From Escherichia phage EJP2, in the sequence record OQ411014.1: a stretch of DNA of 64,000 nucleotides, one strand, 5' to 3'. Positions 1,775 through 61,879 of the stretch are shown piece by piece. The notes beneath the pieces are model-generated. The model ran no database searches. It saw only the letters and a program-made list of their open reading frames with translations, and was not told the origin of the DNA. The first letter of the stretch is position 1, and the number at the start of each line of letters is the position of its first letter. Position numbers and translations under genes: made by a program.

Positions 1775-1918
1775 TTCTCGTAGTACTGAATTATAGATAC
1801 AATCCCGCACCCTATGGGTTAGAGACTTTCTCGTCTTGATGTAGTAATTATACAGTACTGTAATACTATGTCAAGCGTTTAAAGTACATTTATTTTAAAA
1901 AGTATTTGTAGAAAGTAC

Positions 1919-1946
1919 TTGCACAGTACTGATAAAAGCGTATAAT
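1919..1946 (+). promoter_or_regulatory. early promoter
   Basis: -35 TTGCAC 1919-1924, -10 TATAAT 1941-1946; unusually long (~85 nt) leader before ATG 2050. Confidence 0.55.
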
Positions 1947-3950: not shown

Positions 3951-4045
3951 ATTGAAACAACATAGCCCACAGGGTGCAGAGAAGTAAGTGTTTAATAATT
4001 AATTTCCGTGAGTAACTATCTGTCCAGCCAGGGGTGAACTATTTT
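3951..4045 (+). ncRNA. candidate small RNA, copy 1 of a paralogous pair (promoter -35 TTGACT 3916-3921, -10 TATTAT 3939-3944)
   Basis: No ORF; 33-nt block GAAACAACATAGCCCACAGGGTGCAGAGAAGTA and CGTGAGTAACTATCTG shared with copy at 7482-7590. Confidence 0.35.
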
Positions 4046-4125
4046 ATAATTACTATTGACATAATCAAATCAGTACTGTAATCTATACATATATTAACGC
4101 AATACCTAACCTAAAGGGCAAGACC

Positions 4126-4269
4126 ATGAACAATGAGAACGTATACAACAAAGTGCAATCTAAAATCAATTCTGAGCTAACCATCGCCCAACTTGACTTG
4201 ATTGACGAAATGTTATTCTCAAACCGTTCTTTGAAAGATATCATCAAAGCAGTAAAGGCGGCAGCATGA
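4126..4269 (+). CDS. hypothetical small protein (47 aa)
   Basis: ATG 4126, TGA 4267-4269, ATGA overlap with next gene; read directly. Confidence 0.4.
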   Translation: MNNENVYNKVQSKINSELTIAQLDLIDEMLFSNRSLKDIIKAVKAAA

Positions 4270-4583
4270 AAAAGTTATTACTGTCTTTATTACTGGTTAG
4301 TACTTCCTCGATGGCTGAGAATAACATTACTAAAGCTCTCAAGGAAGATCCCTGGCCTGTTTACAAGTGCACTCTGTTAGTAAATGATAAGGAAGTACTG
4401 ACCACTACTAACAAGGAAGAATATAAATCCTATTCAATGCACCCGCGAAACATGCACGTTTATACTTATCCCATCAGTGAAGCGGCGGCCTTTCGCCTGG
4501 TGGTGTCAGATAATCAAGCCACTGGCATCATGTATCACAACAACGAGATAGTAAGCACATATAGCGGAACGTGCACTAAGTAA
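4266..4583 (+). CDS. putative secreted protein with N-terminal signal peptide (105 aa)
   Basis: N-terminus MKKLLLSLLLVSTSSMA is signal-peptide-like; ORF track. Confidence 0.6.
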   Translation: MKKLLLSLLLVSTSSMAENNITKALKEDPWPVYKCTLLVNDKEVLTTTNKEEYKSYSMHPRNMHVYTYPISEAAAFRLVVSDNQATGIMYHNNEIVSTYSGTCTK

Positions 4584-4588
4584 ATGTA

Positions 4589-4614
4589 AAGCCTCCAATG
4601 TTGGGGGCTTTTTT
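4589..4614 (+). terminator. rho-independent terminator
   Basis: Hairpin AAGCCTCCAA..TTGGGGGCTT followed by TTTTTT. Confidence 0.65.
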
Positions 4615-4666
4615 GTATGTATATCAGTACTATAAAAGTATTTTTAAAATACTTTGCAAAAAGTAC

Positions 4667-4730
4667 TTGCACTGTACTGATAAAAGCGTATAATGTTTTA
4701 CATCGAGAGGGGGAAACGGTTCAACCTCAG
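4667..4730 (+). promoter_or_regulatory. early promoter + leader hairpin
   Basis: -35 TTGCAC 4667-4672, -10 TATAAT 4689-4694; imperfect leader hairpin. Confidence 0.55.
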
Positions 4731-4747
4731 AAATTAAGGAAAACAAC

Positions 4748-4858
4748 ATGAAAGCTCAAGCGACCCTGAATAGTACTATCAAAGCTAACAAAATCAATCG
4801 TCTTTACCTTGGTCTGGCTGTTGTCCTGGTAATCGCATTAAGCCTGAATATCGGTTAA
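4748..4858 (+). CDS. small hydrophobic peptide, predicted single TM helix (36 aa)
   Basis: ATG 4748 after RBS TAAGGAAA; TAA 4856-4858; read directly. Confidence 0.35.
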   Translation: MKAQATLNSTIKANKINRLYLGLAVVLVIALSLNIG

Positions 4859-4879
4859 TAAAAAACTTTCGCAGTACTG

Positions 4880-4907
4880 TTGACAACCTCTCCAGTACTG
4901 CTATAAT
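4880..4907 (+). promoter_or_regulatory. sigma70-like promoter
   Basis: -35 TTGACA 4880-4885, 16-nt spacer, -10 TATAAT 4902-4907. Confidence 0.55.
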
Positions 4908-4943
4908 AAATGTACTTTCAAAACATATTAAGGAATTAAAATC

Positions 4944-5276
4944 ATGACTACTTCTAACATCGAAATCATCAACACCGTAGCAATCGAAACTGTTCTGTCC
5001 TTTGATGTTCAAGCAAAACGCTGGACCGATACTTATGGCAATACTTACTTCTCTGTTGTAGTATCGGCAGAACAAGAAAAAGAATATGTAGAACTTGGTG
5101 CGGTTAGTTTCGCGTACGGTTACGATGAAGCATACGCCTACAAAGCAGTTGAAATCATCAAGGAAACCGTAACAGGTATTACATCAGAAGAGTCATCCCT
5201 GTGGCGTTTAATGGATGACCTTAAGTTATCTTGTAACACTAAAGCGACTAATGTCAAGCGTAAAAAAGATTTGTAA
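4944..5276 (+). CDS. hypothetical protein (110 aa)
   Basis: ORF track; RBS TAAGGAAT. Confidence 0.65.
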   Translation: MTTSNIEIINTVAIETVLSFDVQAKRWTDTYGNTYFSVVVSAEQEKEYVELGAVSFAYGYDEAYAYKAVEIIKETVTGITSEESSLWRLMDDLKLSCNTKATNVKRKKDL

Positions 5277-5357
5277 TTGACTTGATTTATTGTGCTGGTG
5301 GTCCTATACTATCAGCACGCATTAAAACTAATTAAACAAACCGAAGGATATACCCAG

Positions 5358-5654
5358 ATGATCAAATATTTCAATACTCGTACCGAAGCCCGTGCTTTTG
5401 CTGCTGCTAACAACACCAAGGTAATTGATAACACCACCGCAGCGGAAAAGGGTAAACGCTGGGAAGTCCAAGTGATGGACGCGATGGACAAGGTAAACGA
5501 AGTACTAGAAATGGTTCAAGAAGAAGTCCCAGACCTCAAACCATTACCAGTACTGAAAGCTCCTGCGGTCATCGTACGCAACCATAAAGAGTACAAGAAA
5601 GATCGCAAAGGTAACACCGTCACAGTATACAGCAAACGTAAACAAGTACTATAA
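5358..5654 (+). CDS. hypothetical protein (98 aa)
   Basis: Internal ATG 5358 with RBS GAAGGA preferred over listed start 5292. Confidence 0.5.
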   Translation: MIKYFNTRTEARAFAAANNTKVIDNTTAAEKGKRWEVQVMDAMDKVNEVLEMVQEEVPDLKPLPVLKAPAVIVRNHKEYKKDRKGNTVTVYSKRKQVL

Positions 5655-6560: not shown

Positions 6561-7154
6561 ATGCGTTTTTACAATAAATTTTTACGTTCTCTGGATGGCC
6601 TGACTAATGACCAAATGATCCAGGCGTGCAAAGATGCAGGCTTAGAGATGGTAGGGCGTGGTTCTTCGCGTGTAGTGTATGCTATCAATGACAAGCTCGT
6701 TATTAAGATCGCATTAAACAGTGTAGGCATTACTCAGAACAAAAATGAAACAAAGATCCATTTTTGTATTAAAAACGAATTCATCGGCCTGTCAAAGTAC
6801 TTTGCACGTGTTTACCCTAACCTGGCTGACCGCAAAGATATTACATTAGTAATGGAACGAGTAGAAACCAAGTTTAAAGGCCGTATTAAGTATTCTACCG
6901 CGTTAACTGTCGTTCGCTTTTCTCCTGCCAGGGCGAAAGTATGTGATATTCATAAGGCCGCTTTAAAGCACTTACAGGCGGTTAGTACTCTGGACGAGTA
7001 TATGAATACTTGCAACGCTACCGACCTGCACGCAAAGAATATAGGCATTAACGACAAAGGACAAGTAAAGATCCTCGATTATGGTTTTAGTCCTGTACTG
7101 CGTAACAAGTATTTTCACGGTCGCATAAAAAATAAAAAAGAAGTACTTGCATAG
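6561..7154 (+). CDS. putative protein kinase-like protein (197 aa)
   Basis: Gly-rich loop GRGSSRVVY, VIKI lysine strand, catalytic-loop-like DLHAKNIGIN and DFG-like KILDYGF; by eye only. Confidence 0.5.
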   Translation: MRFYNKFLRSLDGLTNDQMIQACKDAGLEMVGRGSSRVVYAINDKLVIKIALNSVGITQNKNETKIHFCIKNEFIGLSKYFARVYPNLADRKDITLVMERVETKFKGRIKYSTALTVVRFSPARAKVCDIHKAALKHLQAVSTLDEYMNTCNATDLHAKNIGINDKGQVKILDYGFSPVLRNKYFHGRIKNKKEVLA

Positions 7155-60527: not shown

Positions 60528-60530
60528 AAA

Positions 60531-60557
60531 AAGGAGCCATATGGCTCCTTTTCTTTT
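60531..60557 (+). terminator. rho-independent terminator
   Basis: Perfect palindrome AAGGAGCCAT/ATGGCTCCTT followed by T-rich tract. Confidence 0.65.
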
Positions 60558-61853: not shown

Positions 61854-61879
61854 AAAAGGAGCCTAAAGGCTCCTTTTTG
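61853..61879. terminator. bidirectional terminator between convergent genes
   Basis: Stem GGAGCC..GGCTCC flanked by A-tract and T-tract. Confidence 0.6.

Follow-up and report, generated by a model that had tools for sequence, protein, structure and literature searches.

What is the role of an A+T-rich perfect palindrome that lies just upstream of a phage early promoter? This question is raised by the 64,000-nucleotide stretch of Escherichia phage EJP2 DNA analysed here (record OQ411014.1; hereafter, the window), in which an inverted repeat at 4635-4655 precedes a predicted sigma-70 promoter whose -35 hexamer begins at position 4667 (the 4667 promoter). A first-pass annotation of the window had proposed either an upstream (UP) element or a binding site for a nucleoid or regulatory protein. 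Our analyses favor the former, suggesting that the palindrome is probably part of the UP element of a strong early promoter used by the host sigma-70 RNA polymerase, and that its dyad symmetry is incidental.

Position and statistical significance of the palindrome

The inverted repeat reads AAAGTATTTTTAAAATACTTT and forms a perfect 10+1+10 dyad, in which the two arms are exact reverse complements of each other. The first-pass annotation was correct in describing a perfect inverted repeat, but the 20-mer that it quoted, AAAGTATTTTAAAATACTTT, contains four T's in place of the five in the sequence, so that the palindrome is not an even 20-mer. The repeat was also said to lie immediately 5' of the -35 hexamer, from which it is separated by 11 bases, GCAAAAAGTAC (4656-4666). 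When numbered from the predicted transcription start at ~4701, the palindrome spans ~-66 to -46, which corresponds to -68 to -48 in the numbering of the Escherichia coli rrnB P1 promoter.

In the window, three distinct perfect inverted repeats with arms of at least 10 nt and loops of at most 3 nt were found, as compared with a mean of 0.25 in 100 dinucleotide shuffles. The other two, at 60530 and 61855, are G+C-rich hairpins of the terminator type. In mononucleotide shuffles of the local 80% A+T stretch (4612-4666), arms of at least 10 nt were obtained with a probability of 0.0017. The palindrome exceeds chance expectation, moderately.

The right half of the palindrome matches the UP-element consensus in register

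The full UP consensus reported by Estrem et al. (1998) is nnAAAWWTWTTTTnnAAAAnnn at -59 to -38 in the rrnB P1 register. The consensus of the two subsites is quoted as NNAWWWWWTTTTN for the distal and AAAAAARNR for the proximal subsite (PMC4132738). The 4667 promoter and the other members of its promoter family (cassettes, described below) were scored with the end of the element placed 1 nt before the -35 hexamer, which is the rrnB P1 register.

For the 4667 promoter, the segment at 4644-4665 ends 1 nt before the -35 hexamer, exactly as in rrnB P1. This segment agrees with the subsite consensus at 16 of the 18 specified positions, a score that was reached at 6 plus-strand positions and 1 minus-strand position in the window, and with the full consensus at 12 of 15, a score that was reached at 45 of the ~64,000 window positions. 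The right arm of the palindrome corresponds to the distal subsite and the A-tract that follows it corresponds to the proximal subsite, whose position is occupied by the family-wide AAAAAGTA (4658-4665). Therefore, the element that matters would be the right half together with the A-tract, and not the palindrome itself. The five other plus-strand positions that scored at least 16/18 include 7447, 7609, 19858, and 57656. Predicted -35 hexamers begin at two of these positions, 7447 and 19858, and the UP score may thus be of use in mapping real promoters of the phage.

The same tendency was seen across the promoter family. Asteriusvirus copies of the cassette that lie in non-coding DNA carry GAAAACTATTTTTAAAAAGTA, which matches the full UP consensus at 14/15. 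Among 26 cassettes, the mean UP score was 12.4/15 where the upstream 23 bp were free of open reading frames (ORFs), as opposed to 9.0 where they overlapped an ORF (Mann-Whitney p = 1e-4), a pattern that selection for the UP match, acting wherever coding constraint permits, would be expected to produce. The register, the 16/18 match, and the better UP match of non-coding upstream DNA all support, at the level of sequence analysis, the UP-element option of the first-pass annotation.

From the position, the register, the consensus match, and the family context, together with the lack of conservation of the dyad described in the next section, we infer that two C-terminal domains of the alpha subunit (alpha-CTDs) of E. 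coli RNA polymerase would dock on 4644-4665. The right arm, AAAATACTTT (~-57 to -48), would serve as the distal docking site, and AAAAAGTA (~-45 to -38) as the proximal one. Such docking would lead to increased recruitment of the polymerase and stimulate transcription. The left arm (~-68 to -59) would extend the A/T-tract DNA one helical turn further upstream, where it may add a weak alpha-CTD contact or an intrinsic bend. The perfect dyad symmetry itself is probably read by nothing; it would be lineage-specific, a by-product of AAAGTA / TACTTT half-modules on either side of a T-tract/A-tract core, and a templated (quasi-palindrome) mutation may have perfected it.

The dyad is not conserved, whereas the UP register is kept among close relatives

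The survey of the window and of three other phages covered 35 other cassettes, and in none of them were the arms of any palindrome longer than 6 nt; the longest palindromes that they did contain were copies of the self-complementary CAGTACTG motif. For the promoter at 1919, the first-pass annotation had noted a related AT-rich repeat. The homology was borne out, since the two are paralogous cassettes (upstream sequence TATTTTAAAAAGTATTTGTAGAAAGTAC), but hand pairing of the upstream sequence revealed no perfect dyad beyond a T4/A4 core, and the longest dyad there was the unrelated TACAGTACTGTA, with arms of 6. The nearest Asteriusvirus homologues and the 1919 paralogue have TATTTT(A)AAAAGTATTTGTAGAAAGTAC at this place, in which the T/A tract is kept and GTAT is found where the window has ATAC.

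Variation among closer relatives was obtained from sixteen metagenome contigs encoding the neighboring 105-amino-acid protein or a close homologue, twelve of which were recovered with sequence. Three natural alleles were seen (Table 1). The total length of the palindrome is 21 bp in allele A, which is that of the window, and 20 bp in alleles B and C, so that the spacing of the half-sites is not fixed and differs by 1 bp. Across the three alleles, all of which score 16/18, there is no shift in the register of the right arm, the A5 tract, or the -35 hexamer, while the center and the length of the palindrome change. No compensatory changes in the arms were seen among the three alleles, whose 9-nt arms are invariant.

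Identical 21-mers elsewhere were also considered as possible homologues and were rejected. The four exact matches in IMG/VR all lay in unrelated contexts, without the cassette promoter or the excess of AGTACT described below. The 44.8-kb viral contig IMGVR_UViG_3300020201_000037 carries the identical 21-mer three times (L005 1425-1445 and 4382-4402; L006 8425-8445), and each copy adjoins the same ~50-bp repeat (…ttgttacaaaggtac…tttgaaacctgcaaacatttagc). These copies are a separate repeated intergenic element of another virus.

The 4667 promoter belongs to a cassette family of jumbo phages

When the region 4000-5500 was compared by megablast with 50,697 phage records, only ~80 bp (4634-4715) gave matches. 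These matches (~90% identity) came from 36 jumbo phages, which are of the Asteriusvirus (PBECO4/121Q) type or related to it and have several copies per genome. A more sensitive search detected 477 cassette places in 50 records, with ~10 copies per terminal repeat. The core promoter and the leader also occur in Vequintavirinae, including phage UPEC06, which has the promoter-plus-leader module. By a pattern search, nine cassettes were located in the window (957, 1306, 1919, 2852, 3298, 3670, 4667, 7147, and 8352), and 17 were located by the same pattern in the annotated 21.5-kb direct terminal repeat of Asteriusvirus vB_Ec-M-J.

For 36 cassettes drawn from four phages, the consensus reads tAAAAAGTAC, abutting TTGCAa...GTATAATGTTTTaCAT.GaGaGgG. 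Across these cassettes, the 30 bp before the -35 hexamer are 67-81% A+T, and the GTAC that abuts the -35 hexamer is kept in 29/36. A conserved array of GTAC upstream of the cassettes was rejected, as only the abutting GTAC was conserved and nothing was fixed further upstream. Every cassette continues with a conserved transcribed leader, TACAT(C/A)GAGAG, beyond which come a G-rich stem-loop and AAGGA, in that order. The leader stem exhibited compensatory changes at 6/7 predicted pairs across 23 cassettes, and it likely forms a 5' stabilizing or regulatory hairpin.

No close sequenced relative of the window was found among the 50,697 phage records. The proteins of the window at 1-9.1 kb are homologous to the terminal-repeat genes of vB_Ec-M-J (33-88% identity), with a shuffled gene order, and in the remainder of the window the nucleotide similarity to Rak2-like phages (Hallingskeid, Munch, and GAP32, among others) is only patchy. 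The window therefore represents the early or the terminal-repeat region of a jumbo phage, one of the Rak2/121Q type. It probably begins inside or near the phage's own terminal repeat or early region. In IMG/VR, the degenerate promoter pattern matched a single 348,532-bp contig only, and no relatives of the upstream 105-amino-acid protein were found. The sequence GTTTTACAT, within the repeated cassette, is where several of this phage's Logan contigs break off.

Evidence against the UP-element interpretation and alternative explanations

Several observations weigh against the UP-element interpretation. A perfect 10+1+10 dyad is improbable by chance even at the local composition (P ~0.002). The left arm lies outside the canonical UP window of -59 to -38, so that half of the palindrome is unexplained by a classical UP element. 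The -35 hexamer, TTGCAC, agrees with TTGACA at just 3/6 positions, and the promoter call consequently rests on the family consensus and the perfect -10 hexamer. Finally, the 9-nt arms are unchanged in allele C, although the intergenic region differs at ~9% of its positions. This invariance is not significant, because only ~1.6 changes would be expected in 18 nt and the probability of seeing none is ~0.2.

An alternative, which we consider unlikely, is that the palindrome is a functionless, neutral AT-rich spacer, lying between the terminator and the promoter, that was made symmetrical by one mutational event, either an inverted duplication or a quasi-palindrome template switch. Its loss would then leave the promoter working equally well. 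Deletion of the 11 nt TAAAATACTTT (4645-4655), which consist of T and the reverse complement of the preceding 10 nt, yields the 20-mer AAAGTATTTTGCAAAAAGTA, and this 20-mer is found verbatim upstream of a vB_Ec-M-J cassette (7537) and in the 348,532-bp IMG/VR contig. In addition, the right arm differs from the PBECO4/1919-type cassette mainly by GTA -> TAC, which is itself an inversion, and the dyad is lineage-specific. Either history would amount to an inversion-type templated change, producing a perfect repeat in one step and adding about one helical turn. The history is ambiguous, because MAFFT prefers an ungapped alignment without the 11-nt indel. Against a neutral spacer, the right arm is placed exactly in the UP register, with a 16/18 match of a kind very rare in the window, all alleles preserve this register, and the upstream regions of the promoter family, where non-coding, converge on the UP consensus. 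Moreover, a mutational origin does not exclude UP function, and the two are compatible.

The second alternative is that a dimeric protein, either host-encoded, such as Fis or another nucleoid protein, or phage-encoded, reads the half-sites AAAGTAT / ATACTTT and activates or modulates the 4667 promoter from ~-57. That the dyad is perfect and statistically unusual, and that its 9-nt arms do not vary among the three natural alleles, would agree with such an operator. The Fis consensus has a core of 15 bp, in which G at -7 and C at +7 enclose an A/T-rich center, with Y at -4 and R at +4. A relaxed form of this pattern (G-N13-C, an all-A/T center, and the same Y and R) is fitted by the core GTATTTTTAAAATAC at 4638-4652, but the consensus is non-specific: the stricter form is matched here with 2 mismatches, as it is at 1034 window places at no more than 2 mismatches. 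In alleles B and C, which are G-N12-C, the 15-bp core is broken and a dimer would be misphased.

Further observations also argue against an operator. The palindrome has no second copy in the 64-kb window at up to 3 mismatches, the dyad is absent from all 35 other cassettes, with only the T/A tract kept in the closest Asteriusvirus homologues, and the arms provide no compensatory changes. A scan of 4600-4700 revealed no IHF, CRP, or H-NS consensus; the same scan for Lrp gave an Lrp-like match with 3 mismatches. The half-site hexamers are not enriched genome-wide (AGTATT, 40 copies versus 38 expected; AATACT, 49 versus 35), and the idea that the half-sites are degenerate AGTACT copies was rejected on these counts. 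The option of a nucleoid or regulatory protein in the first-pass annotation thus found no support, since the dyad does not recur, is unconserved across the family, and changes its half-site spacing between close relatives. We regard such an operator as improbable.

A more novel form of the operator explanation is, in our view, also improbable. In it, the invariant 9-nt arms AAAGTATTT / AAATACTTT would constitute a dyad operator for a putative dimeric protein of the host or the phage, which would tolerate a variable center and tune only the 4667 promoter, and with it the gene of the 36-residue hydrophobic peptide. In a broader sense, the AAAGTA / TACTTT half-modules upstream would form a phased array, recognized by the same putative protein that recognizes the genome-saturating (C)AGTACT(G) motif. 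An origin of the region from tandem or direct repeats of an ~11-bp AAAGTAYTTT module was rejected, as Tandem Repeats Finder and a direct-repeat finder detected nothing at 4560-4740. Because no such repeat was detected, the phased array is unsupported beyond the 7-mer AAAAGTA at 4634 and 4659.

It is very improbable that the palindrome acts as a nucleic-acid structure, either a cruciform under supercoiling or a hairpin in read-through or minus-strand RNA that affects transcription: although 4630-4660 folds as single-stranded DNA at -5.4 kcal/mol (z -4.0) and the 71-nt segment 4615-4685 at -12 kcal/mol (z -4.4), the former stem is nearly all A-T (one G-C pair; 9 pairs in the fold as predicted) and is therefore marginal for the extrusion of a cruciform, and the latter fold arises via an outer CAGTACT/TGTACTG stem that is due to the self-complementarity of the ubiquitous CAGTACTG motif. 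An RNA role is unlikely because the palindrome lies 3' of the terminator and 5' of the predicted start, where it should be poorly transcribed, and no convincing minus-strand promoter or gene was found nearby. An intrinsic terminator or structured RNA was rejected on the same grounds of location and of the nearly all-A/T stem. The Rfam Phe_leader model (RF01859) matched the minus strand at 4582-4704 (E = 0.015), but its 34 bits are far under the gathering score of 55, and the match was taken as chance.

Features of the locus and neighboring genes

The palindrome sits in a 164-bp non-coding stretch, between a terminator that marks the left end of this stretch and the sigma-70 promoter (Table 1). 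The 105-codon ORF upstream ends at a stop codon at 4583. From the usual 7-nt distance to the -10 hexamer, the transcription start is predicted at ~4700-4702, and the order 3' of the -10 hexamer is the leader GTTTTACATCGAGAGGGGGAAACGGTTCAACCTC, AAGGA, and the ATG at 4748. The 36-codon ORF that begins there is the predicted gene driven by the 4667 promoter. Its product would be a small peptide with a hydrophobic tail and has no Pfam match; the ORF is also called as a gene in metagenome contigs.

Table 1. Features of the 4667 promoter region, its paralogue at 1919, and the natural alleles of the palindrome
Feature	Position or contigs	Strand	Sequence	Remarks
Intrinsic terminator of upstream operon	4588-4617	+	stem-loop AAAGCCTCCAATGTTGGGGGCTTT (4588-4611), then T run	DNA fold -7.7 kcal/mol, z -4.5
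AGTACT copy	4626-4631		context TCAGTACTA	just left of palindrome
Palindrome, left arm	4635-4644		AAAGTATTTT	~-68 to -59 (rrnB P1 numbering); outside canonical UP element
Palindrome, unpaired center	4645		T	variable part among relatives: TTA (window), AA (allele B), GA (allele C)
Palindrome, right arm	4646-4655		AAAATACTTT	coincides with distal UP subsite
Distal UP subsite, in register	4644-4656	+	TTAAAATACTTTG	9/10 specified positions of NNAWWWWWTTTTN
Proximal UP subsite	4657-4665	+	CAAAAAGTA	7/8 specified positions of AAAAAARNR; family-wide tAAAAAGTAC before -35
-35 hexamer	4667-4672	+	TTGCAC	family form TTGCAn; flanked by AGTACT (4662-4667) and TGTACT (4673-4678)
-10 hexamer	4689-4694	+	TATAAT	16-bp spacer, containing TGTACTG
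Conserved 5' leader and stem-loop	4699-4728	+	TACATCGAGAG	stem partly degenerate in 4667 copy
Shine-Dalgarno sequence	4736-4740	+	AAGGA
36-codon ORF	4748-4858	+		ATG at 4748-4750
Paralogous cassette	1875-1946	+		AT-rich upstream 1875-1918, without perfect dyad; -35 TTGCAC 1919-1924; -10 TATAAT 1941-1946
Allele A (window)	L010, L011, L012, L016, L018			10+1+10
Allele B	L013, L014, L015, L017, L025		AAAGTATTT-AA-AAATACTTT	9+2+9
Allele C	L023		AAAGTATTT-GA-AAATACTTT	9+2+9; neighboring protein 88% identical

For the ten neighboring early ORFs, Pfam searches gave no DNA-binding domain and nothing informative except for a weak protein-kinase match (PF00069, 26 bits, below the cut-off) in the 197-amino-acid early ORF at 6561-7154, whose homologue in Klebsiella phage fENko-Kae01 is annotated as a putative protein kinase.

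To the left of 4635, no credible -35/-10 pair was found for a divergent minus-strand promoter sharing the AT-rich region, of the kind present at 1874/1919. At the latter place, a 12/12 consensus promoter (TTGACA, 16 bp, TATAAT) lies on the minus strand at 1874-1847, back to back with the 1919 promoter, and shares its AT-rich upstream region. Its leader, TACATCAAGACG, resembles the cassette leader. No ORF follows this minus-strand promoter, which may drive a small or antisense RNA.

Other sequence signals in the window

AGTACT is the commonest hexamer in the 64-kb window, with 301 copies as compared with ~21 expected (14-fold), and CAGTACTG, whose extended form is ttCAGTACTGaa, occurs in 107 copies as compared with ~0.7 expected (~150-fold). 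The AGTACT copies are evenly spread over the 64 kb and fall in all three codon phases, at 4.4/kb in coding and 7.3/kb in non-coding DNA. Forms of the motif with one mismatch are not enriched. The same excess was seen in vB_Ec-M-J (5.2/kb), Erwinia phage Hallingskeid (6.9/kb), and Klebsiella phage fENko-Kae01 (4.5/kb), and a literature search found no paper on an excess of AGTACT or CAGTACTG in these phages. The excess is a genome-wide signal at the DNA level, possibly a binding, modification, or self-marking site. It is more interesting than the palindrome and deserves a study of its own.

Seven times in the first 9 kb, a -35 hexamer of the early promoter family is enclosed by two AGTACT copies that lie exactly 11 bp apart (AGTACTTGCAnAGTACT; 224, 602, 1914, 4662, 7142, 7926, and 8347). 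A protein that recognizes AGTACT would bracket or occlude the -35 hexamer in this arrangement. In contrast to the excess of AGTACT, some other 6-bp palindromes are strongly avoided in the window (GGTACC, 0 copies versus 7 expected; AGATCT, 3 versus 21), which suggests restriction avoidance. In addition, the G+C-rich perfect palindromes at 60530-60551 and 61855-61876 (AAAGGAGCC..GGCTCCTTT) are near-identical, with 1.3 kb between them, and probably represent a bidirectional terminator that is repeated.

Implications

The 4667 promoter would represent one more phage early promoter with a near-consensus UP element, serving to out-compete host promoters for E. coli RNA polymerase, and in itself matters little. 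More generally, the alleles and cassettes suggest that the UP elements of this family change through inversion-type events and through indels about one helical turn long, with the register kept, and that perfect dyad symmetry beside a promoter need not mean an operator. The cassette of promoter, UP element, and leader hairpin, which is common to several jumbo-phage genera and to Vequintavirinae, could serve as a compact, strong expression module.

Comparison with known systems

The closest parallel is the rrnB P1 promoter of E. coli, with its UP element and the consensus obtained by systematic evolution of ligands by exponential enrichment (Estrem et al., 1998, 1999). Both promoters are of the sigma-70 type, with a 16-bp spacer and an A/T-tract directly upstream of the -35 hexamer, and share the same register, 1 nt before the hexamer, in which the 4667 promoter agrees with the distal and proximal subsites at 16/18. 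The UP element of rrnB P1 is AGAAAATTATTTTAAATTTCCT. The Asteriusvirus copies (GAAAACTATTTTTAAAAAGTA) resemble this sequence. Unlike rrnB P1, however, the 4667 promoter is a phage early promoter and not an rRNA promoter, its A/T tract runs one turn further, to ~-68, and is perfectly dyad-symmetric in the 4667 copy, and the proximal subsite of its predicted UP element is fused to the phage's ubiquitous AGTACT.

For the possible origin of the dyad, the parallel is quasi-palindrome template switching, known from mutation studies of E. coli and T4, by which a single event 'corrects' an imperfect inverted repeat to a perfect one. The likeness lies in the 11-nt insert (T and the reverse complement of its left neighbor) or, alternatively, in the GTA -> TAC inversion relative to the homologous cassettes. 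The difference is that the event would here be read from alignments of paralogous cassettes, two of which are about equally good.

Among phages, the RpoD-like promoters of the Rak2-like jumbo phage vB_PcaM_CBB are described as 'preceded by an UP-like element', and clusters of them are found in the terminal repeat, which is roughly 20 kb long, and among short, hypothetical early genes (PMC5259590). The CBB paper gives a MEME consensus only, with no palindrome or dyad described (PMC5259590). CBB belongs to the same phage supergroup as the EJP2 window.

Finally, the early promoters of T4 have an A-rich upstream region that is contacted by alpha-CTD, and the contact is modulated by Alt/ModA ADP-ribosylation of alpha R265. 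T4 resembles the present case in its strong sigma-70 early promoters with extended A/T-rich upstream regions, in a large lytic myovirus, whereas two features are peculiar to the present cassette family, namely the form of its -35 hexamer (TTGCAn, flanked by AGTACT) and its conserved leader hairpin. As in T4, dependence on an UP element would offer a route to later shut-off of the promoter.

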